A DNA stretch of 47,517 bases from a virus (lineage: Duplodnaviria > Caudoviricetes), in the IMG/VR virus record IMGVR_UViG_3300031976_000848, positions 1-47,517 of that record, one strand, 5' to 3'. The translations under genes and the position numbers were made by a program. Below the pieces are notes generated by a model. The model was not told where the DNA came from. It worked only from the letters and a program-made list of their open reading frames with translations, and made no database searches. The first letter of the stretch is position 1. Each line of letters begins with the position of its first letter. Of the stretch, positions 12,953 through 47,517 are shown piece by piece.

Positions 12953-13261
12953 CTAGGCGGGTTCAGGCTCGTGCTTATCATTCGGCACAAGATTCATCTC
13001 AATATGCATGCCTAGCGCTTCGGCTGCTTTTGCCATAGTGCTCAGGGTAACGGAGGCGTCATCCTGGTCAAGCAGGCGATCAAGAGCAGAGCGGCTAGTC
13101 TTCATCCTGCCAGCCATCTTTGACTTTGAGATGCGGCGCTCCTCCATTTCCTGGTGGATCTGCCATGCGAGCACCTTCTTGATGGCGTGAGCCTGCGTCT
13201 CATGAAAGAGATGCTCATCAACCAGAAAGTCGTCAAAACTTGAACCTACGTGCTTATTCAT
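12953..13261 (-). CDS. XRE-HTH antitoxin (HigA-like)
   Basis: HVGSSFDDFL, ISKSKMAGRMKTSRSALDRLLD, VTLSTMAKAAEALG. Confidence 0.88.
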   Translation of the reverse strand: MNKHVGSSFDDFLVDEHLFHETQAHAIKKVLAWQIHQEMEERRISKSKMAGRMKTSRSALDRLLDQDDASVTLSTMAKAAEALGMHIEMNLVPNDKHEPEPA

Positions 13262-13650
13262 AAATACCCCTTCCGAGCTTGCTTAAGGCGCTTCTTGGCG
13301 GTCTTAAGTTCCTCAGGTGGCGTCTCCTGGGATTTCTTCACGAACCCATGAAGAAGAAGCATTTCTTCATCCAGGATAGTGAATAAAACCCGCGCTATAC
13401 GCTTATCTGAAATGTTAAACCTGACTTCCCATAGGTCGGTATCGAGCTTCCTGACCAGTGGCATACCAATAGGCCAGCCCCATTGCACTTCCGCAATAGC
13501 GTTGCCGATAGATAGCATGTCTGGGCGGTCAAAGCTTTTGATCCACTCGCGAACAGGCTCTCTACCTGCCTCTGTTTGGAAAAAGCGCGCCTGTAGCCTC
13601 TGGCGATCCGCCTCTTCTATGAGTGTACTTATTTTGGTACTGTTCGGCAA
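13258..13650 (-). CDS. RelE/HigB-family (Gp49/DUF891-like) toxin
   Basis: GREPVREW, GWPIGMPLVRKL, LWEVR, LLHGFVKKSQETP; toxin-first order with ATGA overlap. Confidence 0.9.
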   Translation of the reverse strand: MPNSTKISTLIEEADRQRLQARFFQTEAGREPVREWIKSFDRPDMLSIGNAIAEVQWGWPIGMPLVRKLDTDLWEVRFNISDKRIARVLFTILDEEMLLLHGFVKKSQETPPEELKTAKKRLKQARKGYL

Positions 13651-31486: not shown

Positions 31487-32464
31487 ATGGCGACAACCGT
31501 TAACTCTGACATGATCATCTACAACGATCTGGCTCAGACTGCTTACCTGGAGCGTATTCAGGAAGTGTTCGAGGTGTTCAATACTGCCTCCCAAGGCGCT
31601 ATTGTCCTCGACTCTGAGCTGATCGAAGGTGATATGCGCAAGCGCGCCTTCTACAAAATCGGTGGCTCTATCGCGCACCGCAACGTCAACTCTACCGCCA
31701 CGGTCAGCGGCATCAAGATTGGCGCTGGTGAAATGACCGACATTAAAGTGCCGTTCAAGTACGGTCCCTACGAAACCACTGAGGAAGCCTTCAAGCGCCG
31801 TGCGCGCTCGCCAGAAGAGTTCTCAATGCTGGTCGGCCAAGACTACGCTGACGCGGTCATGGTCGGTCGTGTTGAGTACGCAATGGCCGCTCTAGAGGCC
31901 TCAATTGGCAGCAACAGCGCTATGTCCGTAGCGGGCTCTTTCGCTGTCGACGGCAAGAAAGTACTAACCCGCGGCCTTCGCACCTTGGGCGACCGCTTTG
32001 GTCGTGTCGCTATCTGGGTAATGGATTCCGCCACCTACTTCGACTTGGTGGATCAGTCTATCGCCGACAAGATTTACGGCGAGACAGACGTGGTGATCTA
32101 CGGCGGACAGCCCGGCACCATGGGCAAGCCGGTGCTAGTTACGGATATGTGCCCTGTCGACACCATCTTCGGCCTCCAGTCCGGCTCTGTCAGCATCACC
32201 GAGTCTCAGGCGCCTGGCTTCCGCTCTTACATGATCGACAATCAGGAAAACTTGGCGATGGGCTTCCGCGCCGAGGGTACGTTCAATGTTGGGCTGATGG
32301 GCTATAGCTGGACCGGCTCCGAAAACCCGAACCTTGCTGCCATCGGTACCGGCTCCAACTGGACCAAGTACGCCACCAGCAACAAGAACACTGCCGGTTT
32401 CTTGATCAGCACTGCCGATGCTTCTGGCTCCGGTTCTGCGTCTGCTTCTGGCTCTGGCTCCTAA
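31487..32464 (+). CDS. Major capsid protein with Ser/Gly/Ala C-terminal extension
   Basis: Follows scaffold; TTVNSDMIIYNDLAQTAYLER, FGRVAIW.MDS, GTMGKPVLVTD, NW.K..TSNK.TAG; ends ASGSGSASASGSGS. Confidence 0.92.
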   Translation: MATTVNSDMIIYNDLAQTAYLERIQEVFEVFNTASQGAIVLDSELIEGDMRKRAFYKIGGSIAHRNVNSTATVSGIKIGAGEMTDIKVPFKYGPYETTEEAFKRRARSPEEFSMLVGQDYADAVMVGRVEYAMAALEASIGSNSAMSVAGSFAVDGKKVLTRGLRTLGDRFGRVAIWVMDSATYFDLVDQSIADKIYGETDVVIYGGQPGTMGKPVLVTDMCPVDTIFGLQSGSVSITESQAPGFRSYMIDNQENLAMGFRAEGTFNVGLMGYSWTGSENPNLAAIGTGSNWTKYATSNKNTAGFLISTADASGSGSASASGSGS

Positions 32465-32483: not shown

Positions 32484-33446
32484 ATGCGAGTTCTTATCTA
32501 CTCTCAGTCAGTGCTGGCAACGGCACTGGCCGGGGCTCTGTCTGCCATGGGTCACCGCATTGAAATGCGCAACCCGCGCTATTGGCGCGGCGAGATTGAG
32601 CCGTGTGATTTCCTGGTAGTGGGCGGTATGCGCGCAGGTCGTCGCATTGTGGCGGCCTATGATCAACCGTCGCTGGTAGTCGATTGGGGCTACCTGCATC
32701 GGGTGAATAACCGCGATGAAGTGCATAGCGGTCATTGGCAAGTAGGTATTGGCAATCTTAACTGGTTGCCGCCCTTCGCCTGCCCTACTGATCGCTTTGA
32801 TTCCCTCGGTCTCGAAATTGCCGCGAAAGGCGGTGATGCCAAGGGCTATATTCTGCTCATTGGGCAAATGCCCGGTGATGCTGCCCATGCTGGCGTGAAT
32901 CACGAGGCATGGCTGAAAGAACAGGTCGAGCGCTACGGCGCTGACAATATTCTCTATCGCCCGCACCCGCGCGGCGGCGTTGAGCTCATTGGCGTAGAGC
33001 GCGACACAGGCTCGCTAAGCGAAGCACTTGAAGGCGCAAGGCTGGTGGTCACCTACAACAGCAACGCAGGCCATGAGGCATTGATGGCTGGCGTGCCGGT
33101 GGTCTGCGACCTATCAGCGGCCTATGCCGAGCTATCAGGTGAGCAGTTGCCTAGCCTAGATGATCGTCGCGCCTACTTCGCTCGTGTGGCATACGGCCAA
33201 TGGCTGGCCAGCGAGGCCGAACAGTGCGCAGCGTTCATTCTCGATCACCTGCTAACCGGTGAAGGCTTTGAGGGCGTAGACGATACCAGCGAGCCAAAAG
33301 TCGATAGCGAGCCATCACGCCGTGACTTCCTGCTAGACGAAATCGAACGACTCGGCGGCAAGCGCCCTGGGGCACGGAGCAAAGATGACACGCTTGAACA
33401 GCGTTATGCCGAGTTAATCAACGCTGAGCATGGCGGTGACCAATGA
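32484..33446 (+). CDS. KpsS/KpsC-like (capsule-synthesis) GT-B glycosyltransferase with small C-terminal helical domain
   Basis: DWGYLHR, GQMPGD (QxxxD), YRPHP, VTYNSNAGHEALMAGVPV motifs. Confidence 0.8.
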   Translation: MRVLIYSQSVLATALAGALSAMGHRIEMRNPRYWRGEIEPCDFLVVGGMRAGRRIVAAYDQPSLVVDWGYLHRVNNRDEVHSGHWQVGIGNLNWLPPFACPTDRFDSLGLEIAAKGGDAKGYILLIGQMPGDAAHAGVNHEAWLKEQVERYGADNILYRPHPRGGVELIGVERDTGSLSEALEGARLVVTYNSNAGHEALMAGVPVVCDLSAAYAELSGEQLPSLDDRRAYFARVAYGQWLASEAEQCAAFILDHLLTGEGFEGVDDTSEPKVDSEPSRRDFLLDEIERLGGKRPGARSKDDTLEQRYAELINAEHGGDQ

Positions 33447-34006
33447 ATGCCGAGATAGCGTTTCGCAAGCTGTTGAGCATGGAGTTCTCGACAGTGGTGG
33501 ACGTCGGCTCCGGCGCTGGCGAGCATGCCCGCGCAATGCGTGAGGCAGGCAAGCAGGTAACGACCATCGCTTACACAGGCGAGGCCGATATCATTGGCGA
33601 CTACTGCGAAACCGATGTAGGTCAGTTTGACGCCATTTGGGCTAGCCATGTGCTGGAGCATCAGCCCGACCCGGGCAAGTTCCTACGCAAATGTTACGCC
33701 GACCTCAACGATAACGGCATCCTGGCGGTCACCGTGCCACCGATGAAACCGGAGATTGTGGGCGGTCACCTGACGCTATGGAATGCAGGCCTGCTGCTCT
33801 ACAGCTTGATCCTGGCGGGCTTTGACTGCTCACAGGCCATGGCCAAGACCTACGGCTATAACGTGAGTGTCATCGTCCGGAAGCGGCCAGCCGATTTGCC
33901 TGACTTGCACATGGACCGGGGCGACATTGAGCGCTTGGCCCACCTTTTCCCCATGCCAGTGAAGCAAGGCTTTAACGGCAACATCGCATCGATCAACTGG
34001 AGCTAG
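33443..34006 (+). CDS. Class I SAM-dependent methyltransferase
   Basis: VVDVGSGAG motif I, FDAIWASHVLEH, GILAVTVP. Confidence 0.9.
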   Translation: MNAEIAFRKLLSMEFSTVVDVGSGAGEHARAMREAGKQVTTIAYTGEADIIGDYCETDVGQFDAIWASHVLEHQPDPGKFLRKCYADLNDNGILAVTVPPMKPEIVGGHLTLWNAGLLLYSLILAGFDCSQAMAKTYGYNVSVIVRKRPADLPDLHMDRGDIERLAHLFPMPVKQGFNGNIASINWS

Positions 34007-36685: not shown

Positions 36686-37123
36686 ATGTTTGAGCTTAAC
36701 TCCTACGATGCAGACAGTTTTGAAACCGGCGTATGGTCAGCCGTACAAGGCGATAGCGAATTAAAGGTAGCGCGCGCGGGTAACGCTGAATACCTACGCG
36801 AGCTTGAGAAACTTGAGAAGTCATTCCGCAAAGAGCATGGCGAAAAGCTGGAGCCGCAACAGCGTCACTCGCTTAACTGCCAAGCCATTGCTCGAGGCCT
36901 TCTGAAAGATTGGCGCAACGTGACCGAGAACGGCAAGGTCATCGAGTACACGCCGGAAGTCGGCGCCAAGTATCTGAAACGCAATCCCAAGCTGCTGAGC
37001 TTCGTGCTGGATCGTGCAAACGACCTTGAGCGCTGGGAGCGTGAAGACTTGGAGAATCAGGTGGGAAAGCCTGCAAATTTGTCCGATGGCAAAACAGCTT
37101 CCAAAGACCAGGCCAAAGCCTAG
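36686..37123 (+). CDS. Tail assembly chaperone (gpG-like)
   Basis: LKVARAGN..Y, LLKDW.NV, YTPE; GAGG SD. Confidence 0.85.
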   Translation: MFELNSYDADSFETGVWSAVQGDSELKVARAGNAEYLRELEKLEKSFRKEHGEKLEPQQRHSLNCQAIARGLLKDWRNVTENGKVIEYTPEVGAKYLKRNPKLLSFVLDRANDLERWEREDLENQVGKPANLSDGKTASKDQAKA

Positions 37124-37416
37124 CGGAAGCGCAGGACGAGTATCTGACTGACTGCGAATTTTTGCAGGTAGAGCCCGACCTGCCCGAGCTCGACAACATG
37201 GTCAGCGGATGGATGCGGCGCTACGGCGTCGCGTCTCGGTGCCGTCTTCAAGCAATGAGCGGCATGGCCCCTATATCGCCAATCGACATACTCACCCTGT
37301 GCGACAAGCTGAGATGGCCGTGCGATTACGACGCTGCCCTTCACGTATTGCTTGCCATCGATGACACCTACCGCGAACTACACGAATCAAAACAGCAAAA
37401 CCAAGCCGCCCACTGA
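37063..37416 (+). CDS. -1 frameshifted extension of the tail chaperone (gpGT-like)
   Basis: In-frame G GGA AAG slippery heptamer at 37063-37069 (same as lambda G/T); -1 frame open to 37416. Confidence 0.85.
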   Translation, partial: GKACKFVRWQNSFQRPGQSLAEAQDEYLTDCEFLQVEPDLPELDNMVSGWMRRYGVASRCRLQAMSGMAPISPIDILTLCDKLRWPCDYDAALHVLLAIDDTYRELHESKQQNQAAH

Positions 37417-37553: not shown

Positions 37554-38261
37554 ATGAATGACCTAATCAAAATTGACGCAGACGGCAATGCTTATGTTTC
37601 CAGCACTACCATCGCAGAAGAATTTGGCCGTAGGCATGACAACGTCATGCAGAGCCTTGAATCTCTGATTGCAAGCGGGCATATCAATCTCCTAGATTTT
37701 AAGGAGATTGATTATCTGGACGGAAAAGGCCGCTCACAGCCAGCAAAGATGCTGACTGAGCGAGGATTCTTGATCGCTATGCCATATATTGGCGGCAAGA
37801 AGTCACGAGATGGACAGGTTCGCTTGGTCGATGAGTTTATGTCCATGCGTGTCGAGATGGAGCGCAGCAGAACTGTAAAATACGCCCTACTGGAATCGCC
37901 CGCTGAATGGGAAAAGCGCTTTGTTGATCGCTTCTACCATGCGCTAGGCAAGATGACCAACCTACCGTTTTTGGGCCATATCGGCGGAACGCCTGCCCTG
38001 TTCGGCAAGATCACTAAGGATTGGGTTTATCGGGTTGCCCTAGATGATGAAATCTATCAGGCGGCAAAAGAGAGGGCAGGCAGCGCCCACAAGATCCATC
38101 AAGTGCTTTCAGATGCGGCATTGCGCCGAGTAGAAAAGCAAATGGATGAAATCACCACGCTCGCTAATTCATGCGTTGACTACCAGGACTTCATTGCTCG
38201 ATGCACTCGCATGTATGGGGTGAAGGGGCAGCTAAGGCTTATCTATCCAGCGGCGGCTTAG
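37554..38261 (+). CDS. Rha-family regulator with P63C-like C-terminal domain
   Basis: SS..IAE.FGRRHDNV, LTERGF..AM...G.K; WEKRF...FY, GKIT.DWVY, HQ.L. Confidence 0.88.
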   Translation: MNDLIKIDADGNAYVSSTTIAEEFGRRHDNVMQSLESLIASGHINLLDFKEIDYLDGKGRSQPAKMLTERGFLIAMPYIGGKKSRDGQVRLVDEFMSMRVEMERSRTVKYALLESPAEWEKRFVDRFYHALGKMTNLPFLGHIGGTPALFGKITKDWVYRVALDDEIYQAAKERAGSAHKIHQVLSDAALRRVEKQMDEITTLANSCVDYQDFIARCTRMYGVKGQLRLIYPAAA

Positions 38262-38470
38262 TGCTGCAACGAAAATAGCATCGGGTAATGGACGCAATTT
38301 TGCGCCCATTACCGTTACCCAGTTATTGGGCATCGCCGAGGCGGTCAATTTGACCGCCTGGACTGAGTCGCTTTAAACGACCCTGTTGTGAGATCTCTGC
38401 CCCGCCGAAGAGGTTCTTGTGAGTAGCTTGAAGATACTCACAAGACCGATATGGGCGGAATTCCGCCCAT
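38261..38470. repeat. Array of back-to-back, non-identical palindromes/hairpins
   Basis: 38284-38313, 38313-38335, 38339-38359 (perfect), 38365-38383, 38415-38445, 38451-38470 (perfect). Confidence 0.85.
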
Positions 38471-38471
38471 T

Positions 38472-38508
38472 AAAAACCCCGCCCAGCGAACTGGACGGGG
38501 GTTCTTTT
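38472..38508. terminator. Bidirectional terminator
   Basis: AAAAACCCCG...CGGGGGTTCTTTT. Confidence 0.75.
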
Positions 38509-38575
38509 ACTTGCAGATGTCTACGTACAGATGCACGCAGGCAACCACAAGGGTCAATAGTGCGACGATATCCAT
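38507..38575 (-). CDS. TisB-like 22-aa type I toxin (MDIVALLTLVVACVHLYVDICK)
   Basis: Hydrophobic peptide; GAGGGA SD locked in CCCTC/GAGGG hairpin; long structured leader; terminator directly after the stop. Confidence 0.7.
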   Translation of the reverse strand: MDIVALLTLVVACVHLYVDICK

Positions 38576-38898
38576 CGACTAATCCCTCTGCTGAGGGTCG
38601 GCCATCCTGATCCTTACTGACCTATAGGGGATGGAGGTCATCAATGCTTCCTGGGCGCGACCGTTGGAGAGCCAGCTCATAAAGTCAGCCGGGTACCAAC
38701 CGGGAGAGCTGGTCGAGAACTTTTCCTAGGCCTTTACGGCTTCCTCGACATCCTAGTCGGTCTTTATGCTGTGTTACCCAGCATTGACCAGAAACGAATC
38801 GCACCCCTCTTGATGACGCAGACATCCTAACCTTAATGCGGTCAATAATGGAAGGCTATGCAATTTGCAGGGTCAGCCAAAAGCGAATACAGTAATAG

Positions 38899-38991
38899 AG
38901 TCATCAATGCTTCCGAGACGCGGTATTGCTTACAGCCCTACCAAGGCGTAAGCAAAAAGATACGGCCCCGCCAAGTGCGGGGCTTTTCTTT
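38899..38991 (+). ncRNA. IstR-like antitoxin sRNA
   Basis: TTGCAG(38865)-17-TACAGT(38888) promoter; 38900-38914 complementary to the toxin leader (same 15-mer at 38637-38651); terminator 38965-38991. Confidence 0.7.
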
Positions 38992-39053
38992 GCCCAGCTC
39001 TCCCCTACCCCTTCCCTCCCGCTGCGCTACGATTAGGGAAACTAAGGGGCATG

Positions 39054-39074
39054 AAAAACCCCGCCGAAACGGGG
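39054..39074 (-). terminator. Terminator of the leftward moron operon
   Basis: CCCCG/CGGGG stem with A5 run. Confidence 0.7.
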
Positions 39075-39080
39075 TGATTG

Positions 39081-39491
39081 CTATAGGGGTTCGGCGTAGA
39101 TGCAGATCGTCGCGTAAAGCCTTCCGTCTTTGGTGAAGGGCTTCATGAACTGACGCTGAAGCCTTGCTTGAAGAAATGGAAGGCCCATAAAGATTCGGAA
39201 CCTAACCACTTGTTGACCGCTATCACCTAATGACTCAAAGGTTATCGCGCTACTGGGGCTTGCTGTCGGGTGATGCCTGAAAAGCCAATAGCTTTGCTCT
39301 AGGTACCAGTCAATAAGTGGCTCAGAATCGAATCCTTGCTGCTTTAGAAATTCCTCCGCGGCTCTCCATTGATCGTTGGGCGGATCCATCTTGCTCATAA
39401 ACGCTAATTTCTTTGCCAAATCAGGATCGGCTTTAGCGATTGCATCTCCTGGCTGCCGGTAGGCAATGCGCACTCTGTTTGAAGGGGACAT
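39081..39491 (-). CDS. Hypothetical protein with tail-tube-like N-terminus
   Basis: GGAG SD before MSPSNRVRIAYRQPG. Confidence 0.7.
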   Translation of the reverse strand: MSPSNRVRIAYRQPGDAIAKADPDLAKKLAFMSKMDPPNDQWRAAEEFLKQQGFDSEPLIDWYLEQSYWLFRHHPTASPSSAITFESLGDSGQQVVRFRIFMGLPFLQARLQRQFMKPFTKDGRLYATICIYAEPL

Positions 39492-39528
39492 GGTTATCTC
39501 CATACCCCGCCGAAGCGGGGCTTGGTGG

Positions 39529-39918
39529 TTAGCAGGACTTCCATGCAGCAAGCACAGCCTCATCGCATGCGCGAATAAGCTCCTCGACAACAAAAAGACT
39601 GTTGCTAGCGTCTTTGGGCATCCAGTACCCTGGGTTGAGGTTGTGACCCACCTCTATATTGAGGCTGATTGAAAGGCTTGAAAGCCACTCATCTTTCTCT
39701 GCGGCCAGAACTACCAGCGGAACCCTCCTTCCGTTTTCGCCACTTGTGGCAAAGGCATCAGCATGAATGCCCGAAACCAGAGAGGCTGTAAAGGTTAGGT
39801 CGTGGAGGCTAGACCAGTCGATTTGGTAGCCGTCCTGATGGAATGCTTCTGACAGAATGGCGCTGTAAAGGTGAAGGTCGATAGTGCCGTCGCCATTTAG
39901 GGCGCTTTTGATAGTCAT
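39529..39918 (-). CDS. Hypothetical protein
   Basis: ORF track; AGGA SD. Confidence 0.7.
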   Translation of the reverse strand: MTIKSALNGDGTIDLHLYSAILSEAFHQDGYQIDWSSLHDLTFTASLVSGIHADAFATSGENGRRVPLVVLAAEKDEWLSSLSISLNIEVGHNLNPGYWMPKDASNSLFVVEELIRACDEAVLAAWKSC

Positions 39919-39966
39919 TTTACTTTTCCTGTATAGATGCCCCGCCGAAGCGGGGCTTATTAGTGG

Positions 39967-40467
39967 TTAGGCAGCAATGCTGAGCGAAGGTCTCATGCGT
40001 GCAGACGCTTCAATGCGAACCGCATTGATTGCAGAGATCACCCAATGACCGGCCTCAAAGATCGTGCAACCAATGTTGACGCTGGCCGTGTCGGTGGTTT
40101 CTAGGTAATAAGCCGCAATCCGCTGGATAACCGACGAGGTGCTATCTAGGCGACAAGAGACGTACTCATCTAGCAAGTCGATGGAAAGCATACTAGCAAC
40201 GTCATGGCCAAGCATGGAGTCAACATCGTGGGCTAGCTGCTCGCTAACCGAGCGCGACCATGTATTTTCGCCCTCGCACATCATTAGCGCTTCACGGTAG
40301 AGTGAAAGCTGAGAGATAACGCGGCGTAGCACGTTGAAATGCTTGGGTGAAACCCCTTCGGAGCTGTCGATAAGCAGGCCAACGGCATCTTCAATCAGGT
40401 CTGAGGCGTAAGCGATGCGGTTCATAGGAGTTGATGAATCGCGCTGATTGGTGTAATTTGTGTTCAT
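39967..40467 (-). CDS. Hypothetical helical protein
   Basis: GAGGA SD before MNTNYT. Confidence 0.7.
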   Translation of the reverse strand: MNTNYTNQRDSSTPMNRIAYASDLIEDAVGLLIDSSEGVSPKHFNVLRRVISQLSLYREALMMCEGENTWSRSVSEQLAHDVDSMLGHDVASMLSIDLLDEYVSCRLDSTSSVIQRIAAYYLETTDTASVNIGCTIFEAGHWVISAINAVRIEASARMRPSLSIAA

Positions 40468-40535: not shown

Positions 40536-40546
40536 GTGTCTAGGGG

Positions 40547-40747
40547 TTAGGGTTCGTGGCGCTGAATAATCGCGCCAAGCTGATACACAAGCGCTGCCGC
40601 TTCTGGGTCGCCTGTTTTATCGCGGTGCTTTACCATCTTCGACATCAAAGCCAATAGTAGCCAGTGGGTGTCAAGATCAATGATTGGGTCACAGTGGCCT
40701 AGCTCATGGGCATAGGTGCCATCCTCGGATCTAAGAACGTCGCTCAT
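40547..40747 (-). CDS. Hypothetical protein
   Basis: ATGA coupling to the antirepressor. Confidence 0.6.
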   Translation of the reverse strand: MSDVLRSEDGTYAHELGHCDPIIDLDTHWLLLALMSKMVKHRDKTGDPEAAALVYQLGAIIQRHEP

Positions 40748-41469
40748 GCTGCCACCCCGCTCTCTTGATCCCATAGCTTTTGAAGCCGCACCAAGCCTTT
40801 TCCAGTGACAAGAGCTGTAATGTTTTCCTTCAAGCCTTGCTCTGGATGCTCCCAGTGACTGATTTTTACATCCATCAAGCCAGTCTCAATCTTTGGCTGG
40901 TATGGCTCGTTGTGGCGATTAACCCAGCCGTGGCGACGAAGAAAAGCGAATAGCCTTGTGCGGCCAGTGCCTATAGTTTTAGCGGCCTGCCCTACGGTAA
41001 TGGCGTCATGCGCAATCTCTACTCGGTTGGCAAATTCAACTTTTGGTGCTGCTTCGTGTAACTCACGCTGCTGCTTCTCGATCTGTTCAGCCTGATCGGC
41101 AGCTAAGCGTAGCGCCTCGGACAGGGTGTGCGGAATTTGTGGATGCAAAGGTTGAGATACCTGGCTCTCAAGCTCCTGCCAACGGTCAACTAGAGTAGCG
41201 GTGAATTCGGGACAAAGCTGAGCCACCACTACATAGCTATCGCGCTTCCCCTTATCGCCTTCAAAGATATAAGCCTTTGTCTTACTATTAGGGCTAAGCG
41301 ATTGTTTATTCTCAACTTTAGCCGACGGCGGTAGTTGAATTACGTCTTTTGATGCTAGGCGCTCAATAGAACGGCGAACATCTGAATGATTAGATCCAAC
41401 TAGAGATGCTATCTCTAGGCTGCTCATGGTGACTTGGTTGTTGCCACTGATTGTCATAGAATTGCTCAT
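40744..41469 (-). CDS. ant: Antirepressor (Rha-like N-domain + ANT/KilAC domain)
   Basis: TMSSLEIA.LVGS.H..V.RSIERL, VVAQLCPEFTA.LVDRWQELE, EALRLAAD..APKVEF..LVTGKG. Confidence 0.9.
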   Translation of the reverse strand: MSNSMTISGNNQVTMSSLEIASLVGSNHSDVRRSIERLASKDVIQLPPSAKVENKQSLSPNSKTKAYIFEGDKGKRDSYVVVAQLCPEFTATLVDRWQELESQVSQPLHPQIPHTLSEALRLAADQAEQIEKQQRELHEAAPKVEFANRVEIAHDAITVGQAAKTIGTGRTRLFAFLRRHGWVNRHNEPYQPKIETGLMDVKISHWEHPEQGLKENITALVTGKGLVRLQKLWDQESGVAA

Positions 41470-41543
41470 GTGGTCTTTCCTTCTGGTGGTTGGATCTACA
41501 TTCGAAGCCCTGGCGACCCTACATCGCTGGGGTTTCTTCGTTT
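41469..41543 (+). ncRNA. sar-like antisense RNA to the ant RBS
   Basis: TTGGTT(41434)-17-TAGAAT(41457) inside the ant 5' end; two hairpins ending in GAAGCCC...GGGTTTC plus T-rich tail; P22 immI layout. Confidence 0.65.
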
Positions 41544-42343
41544 CAGGCTGCAATTTCAAAACCAACCACCTTAAGCAGCTCGCCAAACTTGTCTGTAAAC
41601 CAGTGCGGCTGAGTCTGACGCGGAGATTGTGGCGAAGTGACGTTTTTGCCGTATTCAAGCCCTATCTGGGTAACGCACCAGTAAGCAACCTCTTTGCCCT
41701 TCGAGTTCGTGCGTGTCATTTTTTCCAGCAGACCTTGGGCATGGCAGACTTTATTGAAGTAGCTGGCCGATATTCCTGCGCCGTGCTGCTTTAATAAGTC
41801 GGATGCTGATGCCGTGGGCAGGCTTGATCCGCCACCAGCAATTGCAGGTGCGTCAATAGCGTAATCAGGTAGTAGCGGCAAATACTGCGGGCAATTGCTA
41901 GCGGCGAAAGCCTTCATGCTAGTGATTCGCGAGGAGCCCTCTATTCGCAAAGCATCCATAAAAGCGCTTGCGCCTTCTATTAGGTCTGGCATTGATTGCT
42001 TAGGAATAGCGCTTTCACCGTAGCGGCCCGTTCTGCGGATCGTGGGAAGAACGTCTTCAAATACCCACTGCTCAAAACGCTCAGCACTAGGAAGGCGGCT
42101 TTTTACAACCAGTCGGTAAACATCAGACTCTCGGATGACGCTATAAAAACCACCACCCTGTTTCGGGGTAGTGATGGGTTTTTTACAGTGGCGTGATATA
42201 GCGTTCTCCGGCTTGGCGTATCCAAGCGCCTCGGCTACATCGTAAGCAACAAAAAGCGCTTCACCCTCTTCCGTTGCGAGCGTGCGAACTTCGTGGCCAT
42301 CAAAGTCAAATGGAATAGCTGTTGTGGCGGTGGTAGAATTCAT
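41543..42343 (-). CDS. Bro-N domain antirepressor-like protein
   Basis: FDFDG.EVR, FVA.DVA.ALGY, I.ESDVYRLV..SRLPSAERF..WVFEDVLPTIR.TG.Y. Confidence 0.92.
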   Translation of the reverse strand: MNSTTATTAIPFDFDGHEVRTLATEEGEALFVAYDVAEALGYAKPENAISRHCKKPITTPKQGGGFYSVIRESDVYRLVVKSRLPSAERFEQWVFEDVLPTIRRTGRYGESAIPKQSMPDLIEGASAFMDALRIEGSSRITSMKAFAASNCPQYLPLLPDYAIDAPAIAGGGSSLPTASASDLLKQHGAGISASYFNKVCHAQGLLEKMTRTNSKGKEVAYWCVTQIGLEYGKNVTSPQSPRQTQPHWFTDKFGELLKVVGFEIAA

Positions 42344-42355
42344 CGAGCAAGCCTC

Positions 42356-42405
42356 ATGTAACGTTAGGGACATTTAAAGATTAACAGTGTCCCAAAAGGT
42401 TACAT
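42356..42405. promoter_or_regulatory. Inverted operator pair between bro and the divergent repressor
   Basis: ATGTAACGTTAGGGACA (42356-42372) versus TGTCCCAAAAGGTTACAT (42388-42405). Confidence 0.6.
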
Positions 42406-42432: not shown

Positions 42433-42930
42433 ATGCCGATAGTTTTTTCCGATGACTTCCCATTTCTCTTGGTAGACGCTCGCGCCCAGGCTGGCATGAC
42501 GCAGCAAGAGCTAGCGGACAAGCTAGGTGTAAGCAGAAAAAGCCTTTCAAGGTATGAGTCAGGCCACAGCCTCCCCCGCCCAAATGTGCTACTAAAGCTT
42601 TCCGAAGTTCTCAAAGTCGACCCGGGCTGGCTAACAGGCGCTGAAGAGGTAGACCGCTCCCTTCTTCAGCAGGAAATAGAGAGATACGAGAATATCCCGC
42701 GAGATGCGACGGGAATGCCAGTTCACCTATCTGAGGTGACTCGAAGGAAGCTGATTCAGGCCGCACGCCAAAACAACCGGAATGCTCATGACGAGCTCGT
42801 AGCTAGGCTTGAATCTACCTTTGATAGATCAAGCGCTTTTTATGCCGATGTACTGAAAGAGCTTTCAGATATATTCAAAGCTGATAAATTCAACGACATA
42901 ACAAGCAAAGATGACAAGGGGGAAGGATGA
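42433..42930 (+). CDS. XRE-HTH + Arc/Mnt-like repressor (secondary immunity regulator)
   Basis: MTQQELADKLGVSRKSLSRYESG; C-terminal L....R.KL..AARQNNR....ELVARLE..F. Confidence 0.85.
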   Translation: MPIVFSDDFPFLLVDARAQAGMTQQELADKLGVSRKSLSRYESGHSLPRPNVLLKLSEVLKVDPGWLTGAEEVDRSLLQQEIERYENIPRDATGMPVHLSEVTRRKLIQAARQNNRNAHDELVARLESTFDRSSAFYADVLKELSDIFKADKFNDITSKDDKGEG

Positions 42931-43313
42931 CCAGATGGATAGCAGCCGCCCTAGCGGCGCTTTTGCTGGCGGGGTGTGGGGGTGACGAGGAGCCGGAGGT
43001 TAGCAGCAAGCAAGAGCCCGAAACGGCCACTCAAATTGATGCCGACCAAGTTTTAGGCAAGTGGAATACTGACCGGGACTTTGAATCAACCATTGTTATT
43101 TATGAAGATGGTGATGATCTTCGAATGCTTGAGAGCTTTGATGATGGAAGCGATCTTGATTCACTGCTTTACGAAAGCGTTGAGAACGGAGAGACACGTT
43201 ACGCCGCAGATTATGGGCGCGATCTAGGCGAGTACTATGTCATTGGTGAAGATGGTCGGCTTCAAATGTGGAGCGATAACGGCAACTACTACACCGCGCC
43301 GATAGACGATTAA
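42927..43313 (+). CDS. Acidic lipoprotein, candidate superinfection exclusion protein
   Basis: Lipobox LLAG-C; co-transcribed with the repressor; own terminator. Confidence 0.75.
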   Translation: MTRWIAAALAALLLAGCGGDEEPEVSSKQEPETATQIDADQVLGKWNTDRDFESTIVIYEDGDDLRMLESFDDGSDLDSLLYESVENGETRYAADYGRDLGEYYVIGEDGRLQMWSDNGNYYTAPIDD

Positions 43314-43334: not shown

Positions 43335-43357
43335 AGGCCGCTAATGCGGCCTTTTTT
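43335..43357 (+). terminator. Rho-independent terminator
   Basis: AGGCCGC/GCGGCCT plus T-run. Confidence 0.75.
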
Positions 43358-43400
43358 GTGCCCGCCATTTGAGCGGGCTTTCTTGTTTCTGGAGCCCGCC

Positions 43401-46400
43401 ATGGAAAGTCGTTTAGAGTTGGTCGTATCGAGTCAAGCGGCGCAGCAGCATATTAGCCGCCTTCAACGCGAGCTTGAGCGCCTGGATGGTCGAGGCTCTG
43501 CTGCCACTGCAATGATGGGCAAGTTCAACCTAGCCCTTGGCGCTATTTCCGCCGCCGCTGGCGGGCTTGGCTTTTCCCGCATTATCCGCGAAACAGCCAG
43601 CTTTGAAGATGCGATGCTTGGCCTGCAGGCGGTCAGCGGTGCAACCACTAGGCAGATGGCAGACCTAGAAAAGCAAGCGCGCACCCTTGGGGCGACTAGC
43701 ATGTTCTCTGCCGAGCAGGCGGGGAATGCTCAGCGCTATCTCGCTCAAGCAGGCTTTGAAGTCAACGAAGTGCTTAGCGCTACGCCTGGGATACTAAAGC
43801 TCGCAACAGCTGGACAGTTAGACTTGGCTACTGCGGCGGACATAGCGAGTAATGTGCTGGGCGGCCTGGGGCTGGAGGTTTCAGAGCTTAACCGTGTCAA
43901 TGATGTCTTGGCGGCAACAGCAGCGGGCGCAAACACTAACATCCAGCAGCTGGGCGAAGCCCTAAGCTATGCTGCGCCGTTCGCCTCAAAAGCAGGCTTG
44001 TCGCTCGAAGAGACAGCCGCCGCAATCGGCGCAATGAGCGACGCGGGCATCCAGTCCAGTCGCGCTGGTACCGGCCTGGTGGGGATTCTCGCTCAGTTAG
44101 CAGACGCGACACCAAAGGCTCAATCCGCAATTGAGGGTGCAGGGCTGTCAATGGAACAGCTCGATATTAATAGTCGCGGGCTGCAGCCTGTGCTTGATGA
44201 CTTGAGAGGAGCCAACTTAGGTTTGGGCGAAGCTCTCCAGATATTTGGGCGCGAAGCAGGTGCAGCGGCGCTTAACGTTATCAACGCATCGGAGGGTGTT
44301 GCAGGGTTTACCGAAGAGCTTCGTAATGCCGAAGGCGCTGCCGAAGAAATGTCCCTTATTATTGGAGGCGGCCTCACCGGTTCCATGAAGGGCTTCGCGT
44401 CAATGCTCAGCGAGACAATAATCGGGCTTGGTCGCGATGATGGTCTAGCGGCTGGGTTCCAGTCCGTCACCGACACCGTTACCGGTATGCTTGCTGTTTA
44501 CAATGGAATGCTGCCCGCCTTCGCCGAGGCCAATAACCTTACCGAAACACAAACAGACCGAATTGAAACCCTAGCTAAAGGCGTCGACCTGCTAAGCGAT
44601 GCCGCCATCATCGCCGCTGGCATTTACACAGGTCGATTTGTTGCTGGCATGGCGGCGGGCACGCTATCTCTCGCCAATAAAACCAAGGCCAGCATTGCCG
44701 ATGCGAGTGCAACCAACGCGGCCACGGCGGCAGAGATCGCATTTCTCAGGTCGGTTCAGGGTTCGCTCTCTGCCCAGCTAGCCAGCTCTCGCTCTGCTAT
44801 GCAGCGCGCTTCCTTACGCAAACAGCTTGCGGCCAATACCGCTGCCCTGACGGCGGCAAACAACACCTACACCGCTTCACTCGGCAGAAGCACTGTAGCG
44901 GCTCGCGCTATGGGCACAGCCACGCGCGGGTTGAATACCGCCCTATCGCTAGTAGGCGGCCCCCTTGGCCTCCTAGTAGGCGCTGGCGGCCTGATGTACA
45001 TGTTCCGTGAAGAACTGGGGCTGGTTGACGTCGCCGCGCAGAACGCCACCGCAGCGCTTAATGAAAACAGCAATGCGATTCGAGGAGGCACCGCTGCCGC
45101 CTTAGACGCCTCCTATGACAATCTCGTTAATTCGCTAGAGGCAGTTTCGCTTCAAGCCCAGGAGGCTATGGCTCAACTCACTGAATTAACTGCTAGGCAA
45201 TCGTTCTACGAAAACTCACACCAAGGCATGGCAGATAGTGTGGCTGGAGCCATAGGTGAGCAGGAGCAAGCGCTAGCCGGATTATGGGCAAGGCAGGTCG
45301 AGTTACAGGCGGCAATTAAAGCAAACCGCGAGGAGCGAGAGAGATCCACTTCCGCCGACAATCGAAGCGCGTTAGTGCTGAAGACTCTCGACGAGTGGTT
45401 GTTTAAGACCACTAAAAGCACCGACGACCTGAGTAGCAGCACCGATAAAGCTGCCGACAAAACCTACACCCTAGCCGACGCCTACGAATCCCTGCTCGAC
45501 CGCATCACGCCGAACCGCCGCGAGGCGCGACAGTATGCGCAAGACTTAGGCGTTCTCAATCTAGCCCTAGCCTCTGGCCGCATGACCACCACGCAGTACA
45601 TGCAGGCCATGGGGATGCTGCAAGAGTCGTTTCAGGCAGCGCAGCGGGATACCTCGGACTTGGCTGATAACGTCGACACCGAGTCTGAGCGCATGGCTAC
45701 GCTATGGGAACGCCGCCTTGAGCGCATGGATGACGCGGGCGTGGATATGTGGCGCTCGTTCCTCGATGGCTCGGAAGATGCCTTTGGCTCGTTCCGTCGT
45801 TTGGCGCTGGATACGCTGGCTGAGGTTATTCATGCCTACACCACTCAGCGCATTACGGCCTCTCTCGGCCTGAATGTGGCTGGAAGTGGCGGCGCTAGTG
45901 CGGGTGGATTCAATGGCATTGGCAGCCTGGTTAATAGCGGCAAGTCGCTGCTTGGCTTTGGTAGCACTGCTGCAGCCCCCTCGTTGGCCATGCAAGGCGG
46001 TTTATCGTCCGCTGCCCTGGCGAGTGCCAGCCAAGTGGCTACTGGCGCAACTTATAGCGGCGCACTGGGCAGTGCTGCCTCGGGCGCTGCGCTTGGCAAT
46101 TCTGCTGGCTTAATGAGCAGCATCACATCCGGCATCAGCGCTGCCATGCCTTGGCTGGCAGGTGGCTTTGCCATTGATAACATTCTCGGCCTTGGTATCA
46201 CTGACGGGATCACGAAAGCGCTTAGCGGCCTGTTTGGCTCTGATCGCAAATCATACGGCCAGCTAGGCTCTCAGATCGGAGGCGACCGCAATGCAGGGGA
46301 TGGCGTTTATCGCTATGACCGCAATGATCGGAGCATGGGCTGGGCTCAGCAAACCGCGCTCGGCACTATCGGCGTCACGAAAAAGCAGAAAACTGACGAC

Positions 46401-47517
46401 GATGCGCTGATTGAAATGGTCGATGGGCTTGCACAGTTTGACAACACGCTCGCGTCAGTGATGACTGCGGCGCAGCTTGAGCAGACGCGCACCGCGCTAG
46501 ACGGCTGGAAATCTAGCCGTACAGAAGACATCGGCGGTCTAGTTGATGAGCGTCTATCTGCTGTTCTGAATGCAACAAATAGCGTGTTTAAAGATGCGCT
46601 CAGCCAGTTCGAGGGCGAAGCGCTGGTCCAGGGTCTTGTCGGTGGCTTGCGGGTAGAGAACATCGGTGCGCAGATGGCGTCTGCTGTCGCGGCTGATATG
46701 AACGCCGAGTTCCGGTCTGCTCTGGCCAGTGGTTCTGACATTCAGGCCGCGACGCAATCGATTCTATCGAGCGCCCAGGCAGTGCAAATCCTGGGCGGCG
46801 CTGTTGATCGGCTCAATCTACAGTTCGACTCGTCAGCGACAGGCGCGCTGGGCGACGCAGGGGCTATCGAAAATTATGTTGGAGGATTAGAAAACCTAAC
46901 ATCTCTCCAGTCATCGTATTTTAATAAATATTTTAGCGAGTTAGAGCGAACCGAAACTGCCATTAGCGACCTGACGGCAGGTTTTGCGGCGCTCGGCACA
47001 CGGCTGCCAAAAGATGAGGAAAATCTGCGCGCACTGATCGAAGCGCAGGAGCTCAACACCGCCGCTGGGCAGTACAACTATGCGCAGCTACTGCAGTTGA
47101 GTGGCGCGTATAAACAGCTCAATGACTCGATGGAATCCCAGATTAGCGCGGTGTATCAGTCGTCGCTCGGACGCGAGGCCGAGGCCGAAGGGATTGATTA
47201 CTGGATGGATCTCGTCACCGCCGGGGCGATGACGTTAGAGCAAGCGCTCGATGGCATTCGCAACAGTGCTGAGGCCGCAGCGCTGGCAGCTAACGGCGGC
47301 GCGACGGCTGTGCAGGATATGTCGGACGCGATACGCACCCGTGAGCAGCTAGAGCGGCAATGGCTAACATTGCAGGGAGACACCGAGGCATTGCGCGAGC
47401 GGGAGCTACAGCAGTTGCGCGAGGTGGCCGGGGCCGAAGAGTACGGGCTGGAGGCGCTGCAAAACCGGATCTGGGCGTTAGAGGATTCCACCGCGCGTCT
47501 AGCGGATTATGAGCGCA
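43401..47517 (+). CDS. Tail tape measure protein (TP901-type core), truncated by window end
   Basis: GGAG SD; FEDAM..LQAVSGAT..QM..LE.QAR.LGATSMFSA.QA...YLAQAGF; frame consistent at both ends, and no stop-terminated ORF in this frame appears in the track. Confidence 0.93.
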   Translation, partial: MESRLELVVSSQAAQQHISRLQRELERLDGRGSAATAMMGKFNLALGAISAAAGGLGFSRIIRETASFEDAMLGLQAVSGATTRQMADLEKQARTLGATSMFSAEQAGNAQRYLAQAGFEVNEVLSATPGILKLATAGQLDLATAADIASNVLGGLGLEVSELNRVNDVLAATAAGANTNIQQLGEALSYAAPFASKAGLSLEETAAAIGAMSDAGIQSSRAGTGLVGILAQLADATPKAQSAIEGAGLSMEQLDINSRGLQPVLDDLRGANLGLGEALQIFGREAGAAALNVINASEGVAGFTEELRNAEGAAEEMSLIIGGGLTGSMKGFASMLSETIIGLGRDDGLAAGFQSVTDTVTGMLAVYNGMLPAFAEANNLTETQTDRIETLAKGVDLLSDAAIIAAGIYTGRFVAGMAAGTLSLANKTKASIADASATNAATAAEIAFLRSVQGSLSAQLASSRSAMQRASLRKQLAANTAALTAANNTYTASLGRSTVAARAMGTATRGLNTALSLVGGPLGLLVGAGGLMYMFREELGLVDVAAQNATAALNENSNAIRGGTAAALDASYDNLVNSLEAVSLQAQEAMAQLTELTARQSFYENSHQGMADSVAGAIGEQEQALAGLWARQVELQAAIKANREERERSTSADNRSALVLKTLDEWLFKTTKSTDDLSSSTDKAADKTYTLADAYESLLDRITPNRREARQYAQDLGVLNLALASGRMTTTQYMQAMGMLQESFQAAQRDTSDLADNVDTESERMATLWERRLERMDDAGVDMWRSFLDGSEDAFGSFRRLALDTLAEVIHAYTTQRITASLGLNVAGSGGASAGGFNGIGSLVNSGKSLLGFGSTAAAPSLAMQGGLSSAALASASQVATGATYSGALGSAASGAALGNSAGLMSSITSGISAAMPWLAGGFAIDNILGLGITDGITKALSGLFGSDRKSYGQLGSQIGGDRNAGDGVYRYDRNDRSMGWAQQTALGTIGVTKKQKTDDDALIEMVDGLAQFDNTLASVMTAAQLEQTRTALDGWKSSRTEDIGGLVDERLSAVLNATNSVFKDALSQFEGEALVQGLVGGLRVENIGAQMASAVAADMNAEFRSALASGSDIQAATQSILSSAQAVQILGGAVDRLNLQFDSSATGALGDAGAIENYVGGLENLTSLQSSYFNKYFSELERTETAISDLTAGFAALGTRLPKDEENLRALIEAQELNTAAGQYNYAQLLQLSGAYKQLNDSMESQISAVYQSSLGREAEAEGIDYWMDLVTAGAMTLEQALDGIRNSAEAAALAANGGATAVQDMSDAIRTREQLERQWLTLQGDTEALRERELQQLREVAGAEEYGLEALQNRIWALEDSTARLADYER

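Follow-up and report, generated by a model that had tools for sequence, protein, structure and literature searches.

A small accessory protein (moron) of a temperate tailed phage begins with a near copy of the first residues of the phage's own tail tube protein. Our preferred explanation, to which we give a probability of roughly 0.35, is that an older mobile moron acquired the 5' end of a tube gene as a graft and that the grafted residues have since been selected as a mimic of the tube which would serve as a decoy; the function is proposed from sequence, and a domesticated fragment without any mimicry is nearly as probable. The moron gene lies in a linear virus record of 47,517 nt (completeness estimate 92%), the whole of which was analysed and is henceforth referred to as the window, and the left end of which encodes a tyrosine recombinase. 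Because the nearest named relatives of the tail tube of this phage are tubes of Halomonas and Vreelandella, the host is likely a member of the Halomonadaceae.

The moron protein (P0001) starts MSPSNRVRIAYRQPG and the tail tube protein (P0002) starts MSESNRVRIAYRDAG. A first-pass annotation, made from the window alone, had claimed that 12 of the 15 N-terminal residues are identical and that nine of the 11 shared non-Met codons differ synonymously between the two genes, and both counts were reproduced exactly as listed (at the DNA level, 27 of 45 nt are identical). It had also described the rest of the moron as unrelated to the tube, and this agrees with the profile-profile comparison (hhalign) of the two families, in which 17 N-terminal columns align and nothing beyond. 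The same annotation had read the codon differences as a sign that the similarity is held at the protein level. The protein-level similarity stands, since 9/9 close homologs keep the motif, but the codon differences do not prove selection: with synonymous codons drawn at random, differences are expected at 7.0 of the 11 positions and nine or more have P = 0.17, and the argument was rejected. The shared codons are saturated, and there has been no recent copy. Over codons 4–12 the moron shares 17/27 nt with its own tube and 16–21/27 nt with seven other tubes, and the fact that its own tube is not its nearest DNA, together with the codon saturation, indicates that the moron start is not a recent duplication of the phage's own tube gene. 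The start ATG (39491) has a GGAG 6 nt upstream; a second in-frame ATG lies four codons further upstream (39503) and is used by two of the four database entries of this cluster. The coordinates of the features discussed are given in Table 1.

Table 1. Features of the moron gene, the tail tube gene and the accessory slot, in window coordinates
Feature	Position	Strand	Basis or remark
Tail tube gene P0002	35696..36598	+	PF18906 Phage_tube_2, E 2.7e-28
Tail assembly chaperone gene with the following short ORF	36686..37416	+	phrog_313, phrog_1189; left slot border
Intrinsic-terminator-like hairpin with T run, just past the moron stop	39058..39075	-	Consensus match only; copy of the same hairpin repeat
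Moron gene P0001, 136 aa	39081..39491	-	Coding: homologs and third-position bias in diverged allele
Tube-like N-terminal segment, codons 1-15	39447..39491	-	Invariant core RVRIAY at 39476-39459
GGAG ribosome-binding site and GC-rich UUCG hairpin	39498..39520	-	Upstream cassette junction
Two genes upstream of the moron and part of its leftward run (129 aa; 166 or 152 aa), without known family	39529..40467	-	
Two antirepressor-type genes (Rha-KilAC; Bro-N), head of leftward run	40744..42373	-	Pfam/PHROG profiles
Divergent HTH repressor, apparently in an immI-like layout	42433..42930	+	Pfam/PHROG profiles
Tape measure gene, open at window end	43344..47516	+	TIGR01760, E 1.5e-55; right slot border

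To place the match against background, the ORF starts of the window and of 25 related loci (n = 15,572; the 25 were taken from 49 after short and duplicate loci had been left out, and several of them are near-duplicates) were scored against residues 2–15 of the cognate tube. The top score, 52, belonged to the moron ORF (counted at two of its starts), and the runner-up reached 27. Across the 25 related loci no other ORF starts like its cognate tube; a tube-start match in locus L046 lies within a longer antirepressor-like ORF and was judged to be due to chance. A DNA pattern scan for the SN-type start returned six loci, all of them tubes, and a scan for the SS-type start, with a pattern tailored to tubes, returned none. 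Exact nine-residue runs are expected 3e-4 times in the six frames of the window, allowing any of 300 tube positions. A chance similarity or a spurious ORF, which the small size of the family might suggest, has a negligible probability: it is ruled out by the start scan, by the conservation of the motif and by the expectation of 3e-4, and the third-position bias of a diverged allele (see below) also speaks against it.

Homologs were found in three close clusters (60–65% identical), both by a word-indexed search (nine candidates) and by a profile search (7,304 candidates), and an exhaustive profile search of 1.84 billion representatives returned two proteins, P0005 and P0063. The family is tiny, consisting of these three clusters and one distant member (P0003–P0010 and P0063). 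The first-pass annotation had singled out conservation of the motif in homologs as a check on its proposal: S-[NS]-RVRIAY is present in 9/9 members of the three close clusters, and the one distant homolog, P0063, lacks it. In a six-row alignment 63 of 136 positions are invariant, and residues 4–11 form the sole stretch of eight with at least seven invariant positions (P ~0.02 at the overall rate with six rows, a modest value as three independent alleles with the motif are few). None of the eight residues directly after the motif (12–19) is invariant, and the core strand VVRFRI (residues 95–100) is likewise invariant at 6/6 positions. R12 is replaced by Ile in the P0005 cluster, whereas tubes have R in 48/51, and G15 is kept only in the moron allele of this phage.

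The tubes were compared over the 51 of 53 proteins that could be anchored. The motif residues recur in them at R6 (45), V7 (49), R8 (50), I9 (45), A10 (45) and Y11 (33), and RVRIAY is exact in 25/51, preceded by SN in 11, SS in 7 and AN in 6. The one variable position of the moron motif is N or S, which are also the two commonest residues of tubes at this position (N in 34 and S in 14 of 51), and the SS-type tubes form a separate clade (support 100/97, 14 rows); by sequence, both variants of the moron motif (SN and SS) are variants of the tube family. No DNA locus for any homolog was found in viral, genome or metagenome contigs or in GenBank phages, and two profiles found the moron family in 0/342 family genomes, in 15 of which the tube was detected. 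P0001 had no match above cut-off in Pfam, PHROG, NCBIfam or PADLOC, libraries from which the Tai and Ati families are possibly absent. A Pfam NNH2 match obtained for P0005 only (E 0.046) was rejected.

In the tube model (pLDDT 91.9) residues 7–13 form the first beta strand and residues 3–5 a helical turn, and the fold matches those of SH-Ab15497 (TM 0.86), P74-26 (TM 0.80) and T5-type tubes (pb6). The motif is predicted to correspond to this strand (β1) of the tube. For the P74-26 tube, the available account reports that the N-terminal five residues block the monomer socket and, once the tube has formed, become part of the intra-ring interface (PMC10034513). In the moron the strand is better preserved than this N-terminal arm, as residues 2–3 vary, and the invariant motif residues cover both strand faces (R6, R8 and A10 on one, V7, I9 and Y11 on the other). 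An AlphaFold2 model of the moron (pLDDT 78.4, from a four-row alignment with one of five models confident) has four helices (residues 16–73) followed by a four-stranded sheet (residues 78–135); residues 1–20 have a pLDDT of 41–55 and form no strand, the core is at 74–91, and the motif is thus predicted not to be packed on the moron's own core. With these helices and sheet set against a mostly-beta tube model, and with no Pfam or PHROG profile match, the moron is not a Phage_tube_2 paralog: what it shares with the tubes of this family (PF18906, phrog_290) is the first 12–15 residues, and what differs is everything after residue 17 and the predicted fold.

Further searches with the moron fold gave no named relative. 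Foldseek returned no match at E <= 0.001 in the PDB or BFVD, and profile searches of solved chains gave none below E 0.03, the match to L17 (E 0.034) being rejected. Weak nucleotidyltransferase-like rows from a wide aligner (best Z 4.7, 76 residues aligned, rmsd 3.6) were rejected as a common arrangement, and the best matches in the ESM Atlas (0.84 and 0.82) are unnamed and serve as leads only. When the moron and a single tube chain were predicted as a complex, the score was 0.00 in two runs; as the controls were not folded, this carries no weight either way.

The distant homolog P0063 (135 aa, E 1.2e-8, 30% identical), in which the core is present and the motif absent, provides an outgroup. 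It starts MPSIRMNTIYIPF. Upstream of the motif, P0008 carries MPSTIMNTPFIVF and P0010 carries MPSTTMNTPFLTF, and the first 13 residues of P0063 match this upstream segment at 8/13 positions in P0008 and at 7/13 in P0010. Between the segment and the core P0008 has 24 and P0010 has 22 residues more than P0063, and these extra residues contain the motif with its own Met. In P0008 the residues up to the motif Met read EVSIM, where in-frame ribosome-binding regions of tubes read EVTPM, EVIEM and EVHIM. Because a homolog without the motif begins with a segment that is kept upstream of the motif in two others, we consider it probable that an older moron received the tube start by in-frame insertion of the 5' end of a tube gene; on the simplest reading, the lineage of this phage would later have lost the old moron start. 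The first-pass annotation had named capture of a piece of a tail gene as the alternative to its own proposal, and the motif-less outgroup lends that alternative support as the origin of the motif, although capture and mimicry are not mutually exclusive. It is unlikely, in our estimate, that there was no graft and that point changes gradually turned the ancestral N-terminus, or a tandem duplicate of it, into the tube sequence as convergent mimicry. Such a course would suit the codon comparison above, in which the moron's own tube is not the closest DNA, and the start of P0063 does also align directly on the motif (P-S-x-R-x-x-x-x-Y), in register at P, S, R and Y; however, this alignment has four identities against 7–8/13 for the insertion alignment, and nine consecutive identical residues would be an unusual product of convergence.

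P0063, a tube 91% identical to that of this phage (P0011) and a homolog of the gene upstream of the moron (P0072) each lie on a contig of 36,531 nt, and, judged only by this equal length, the three probably come from one close relative that carries the motif-less form. The upstream segment shared by P0008, P0010 and P0063 could be conserved as DNA rather than as protein. In these three proteins the second Met is preceded by I, T or R, residues that each have an A-n-A codon, and by back-translation the segment might contain, in frame, a TAnAAT promoter box.

The moron gene sits in a slot of ~6 kb with the tail assembly chaperone on one side and the tape measure on the other, and the genes within it are three of antirepressor type, a divergent HTH repressor and several without known family. 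It is the last gene of a leftward run headed by antirepressors and is antisense to the late operon. By analogy, the slot resembles the immI region of P22, where arc and ant are described as repressed by Mnt (PMC11016777), and the position of the moron behind antirepressors points to expression in lytic growth. GC content is 0.51 at the moron gene and 0.52–0.59 in the tail genes to its left. The nearest minus-strand promoter consensus site (40889–40862) could drive the last genes of the run separately, a point against the decoy proposed below; three promoter-like sites were found where 5.7 are expected by chance, that is, below expectation. The three regulators of the Rha/Ant/Bro type in this one slot lie at 37554–38261 (+) and 40744–42373 (-), and ORF lists of loci L038 and L046 contain similar genes in the same slot.

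Alleles of the moron were compared in contigs of four of 11 listed runs. The X3 and X5 contigs, from one study, match the gene almost exactly (three differences in 426 nt; one in 244 nt) and depart from the window sequence at 39520, the edge of the GC-rich hairpin; one X10 contig also breaks at 39522. Another X10 contig agrees with the window over both upstream genes, starting at 40543, and beyond them has a diverged moron allele, with 30 of 41 differences within 39348–39454. In the ungapped part of this allele 13 of the 21 listed changes, including the first eight listed, fall at third codon positions (40 of the 133 differences of X10 being listed), and two of its codons, read by hand, give W-R as in P0005. 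In the related loci L005, L038 and L046 other genes fill the same slot. The GC-rich hairpin is a repeat that borders each small gene (39058–39075, 39504–39520 and 39939–39956, with weaker copies at 38398–38424 and 38964–38984), and as other samples switch sequence there it may be an exchange point of the moron array. The gene has the marks of a moron, namely a place in a slot between conserved genes, variability among relatives and a terminator-like site downstream (a consensus match only); it is a real gene in a mobile cassette. One X10 contig diverges from the window at 38473. This position falls within a stretch of ~800 nt (38262–39057) with short ORFs only, several hairpins and a 28-nt inverted repeat (38402–38458), which could hold a small RNA.

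We considered how a moron bearing the start of the tube could act. On balance, the motif appears to have been selected as a mimic rather than for structure. In the explanation that we prefer, the first 12–15 residues would have been kept, after the graft, as a working mimic of the predicted first strand of the tube; the moron would be expressed together with the antirepressors at infection or induction, shortly before the phage makes its own tube; and the mimic would occupy a host protein that recognises newly made tube, such a sensor being hypothetical. The decoy is preferred because both strand faces are kept and the variation of the motif follows that of the tube, and because the gene ends the antirepressor run and would from this position be expressed just before the phage's own tube. 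Tube proteins have been reported to trigger DSR2 (PMC11263360), Avs16, which engages a tube beta-hairpin (PMC13581612), and HigBAC, in which HigC engages W36 and W67 of lambda gpV (bioRxiv 10.1101/2024.02.24.581848), and DSAD1 is reported to compete with the tube for DSR2 (PMC11263360). As far as these accounts go, however, the sensors engage other parts of the tube and none reads the first strand alone, and with HigBAC a mimic would trigger rather than block. A further point against a decoy is the outgroup P0063, a family member that does without the motif, probably in a close relative with an identical tube start. In a broader version, which we regard as rather speculative and put well below the decoy itself, the family would have adopted the tube's first strand as a mimic tag that can be exchanged and adapted to the tube clade faced (SN vs SS), and the tag would neutralise a Halomonadaceae sensor of the unfolded N-terminus of nascent tube; counter-defence would then consist in attaching to a carrier protein the very peptide that acts as trigger.

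The closest competitor, tentative in the same way as the decoy, dispenses with mimicry: a captured tube start with its ribosome-binding site would have replaced an ancestral hydrophobic segment and would be kept for packing on the moron sheet or a dimer, or for supplying the start. P0063 has such a segment (NTIYIPF) at about the same distance from the core, the conservation of the motif is not above that of a core strand, and 0/25 related loci have another tube-start ORF, from which it follows that copying the tube start is not a general strategy of this phage group. Yet R6, R8 and A10, on the exposed face, do not vary and have stayed identical to the tube consensus despite codon saturation, the N/S variation of the motif matches that of the tube, and the model, built on a shallow alignment, leaves the segment unpacked. 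The first-pass annotation had favoured a strand mimic that poisons or modulates tail polymerisation, or a decoy for a host sensor of tail proteins. Mimicry at the protein level, of what is predicted to be the β1 strand, survives our analysis, but poisoning now seems unlikely, and less probable than the decoy, as the explanation of the gene. In that mechanism the motif would enter the β1 slot or the N-terminal arm site of nascent tube and the bulky core would block ring growth, in superinfecting relatives or as a delay of the phage's own assembly. In its favour, both strand faces are kept; RVRIAY is common enough among tubes that one blocker could cover many phages; and the N-terminus of P74-26, whose tube fold is matched by our model, is reported to control socket opening and intra-ring contacts (PMC10034513). 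The best-kept residues, however, belong to the predicted intrachain strand (7–13) and not to the N-terminal arm, a place behind antirepressors would suit lytic rather than lysogenic expression, and the Discussion of the Tab study argues that the tube, with hundreds of copies, is a poorer target than the tape measure (PMC10884400). A poison with this motif would, moreover, hit the phage itself, which is one of the reasons why we place the decoy ahead of it. A role as bait or trigger is improbable: here the motif would keep a partner, or the core of the moron itself, inactive, and displacement by incoming tube would release it, as with the ChAD of toxin-antitoxin-chaperone systems, but the phage's own tube would trip it. 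In HigBAC gpV and the antitoxin are reported to compete for one chaperone (bioRxiv 10.1101/2024.02.24.581848), and two genes without known family lie directly upstream of the moron as possible partners; the upstream neighbour is not fixed, however, as the near-identical X3 and X5 copies have other DNA upstream of 39520.

Among accessory proteins that copy a part of the virion, a kind already known, the moron is set apart by the conservation of its motif across alleles together with an outgroup that lacks it. DSAD1 of phage SPbeta, a small phage protein that competes with the tube for a host sensor, corresponds to the functional model proposed here (PMC11263360, PMC10981675); it is described as built of eight strands and a single helix and as structurally unlike anything reported (PMC10981675), whereas the moron carries a literal copy of the tube's first residues on a helix-plus-sheet core. 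The likeness to Tab of JBD26 drawn in the first-pass annotation extends to a small prophage accessory gene tied to tail assembly, but goes little further: in the account consulted, the activity of Tab is linked to the C-terminus of the tape measure and is constitutive, an antidote (anti-Tab) is encoded in the late operon and no tube mimicry is described (PMC10884400), whereas the moron matches its own tube and ends an antirepressor run. Tai and AtiEcA likewise form a prophage-borne pair of defence and counter-defence at tail assembly; Ati is reported to be made with the late operon and to bind Tai (PMC11364771), whereas the moron is antisense to that operon and carries a tube motif. HigBAC includes a non-structural protein in which a linear pattern resembles one of the major tail protein, but this is described as a loose aromatic pattern that serves sensing (bioRxiv 10.1101/2024.02.24.581848), and no toxin, antitoxin or SecB family was detected among the moron neighbours scanned. 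The P-FimU proteins are products of accessory prophage genes that resemble a structural component, in the reported case a host pilus protein (PMC12952977), whereas what the moron copies is a short stretch of a virion protein of its own phage. Judged from search listings, we found no publication on the moron family or on a tube-start graft; supplements to the Tab, Tai and Avs reports might name relatives.

Tail tubes are known triggers of immunity and their N-termini control polymerisation, and the existence of versions with and without the motif within one family provides a ready-made experiment. As a decoy, the moron could serve as bait to isolate a new tube sensor; as a blocker, it would provide a peptide inhibitor of tube assembly; and if all it carries is a domesticated strand, it would show clearly how capture of the start of a structural gene can create a new N-terminus.

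Several other features of the window were observed. The gene two places upstream of the moron (39967–40425, minus strand) has a 152-aa form, used by five of eight cluster members, that starts MNRIAY and so echoes the RIAY of the motif; RIAY occurs three times in the six frames of the window, and the echo is probably due to chance. Just before the tape measure, an acidic lipoprotein-like gene (42927–43313, plus strand), with weak matches to lipoprotein signal regions only, encodes a candidate exclusion protein. A RelE-like and HTH gene pair beside the main repressor (12953–13650, minus strand) looks like what we take to be a toxin-antitoxin module. Between the capsid and head-tail genes lie two genes of non-structural appearance (32484–34006, plus strand), the second of which has a DxGxGxG motif, presumably of the SAM-methyltransferase type, and the capsid-type protein encoded before them (31487–32464, plus strand) has a Gly/Ser/Ala-rich C-terminal tail of ~14 residues.
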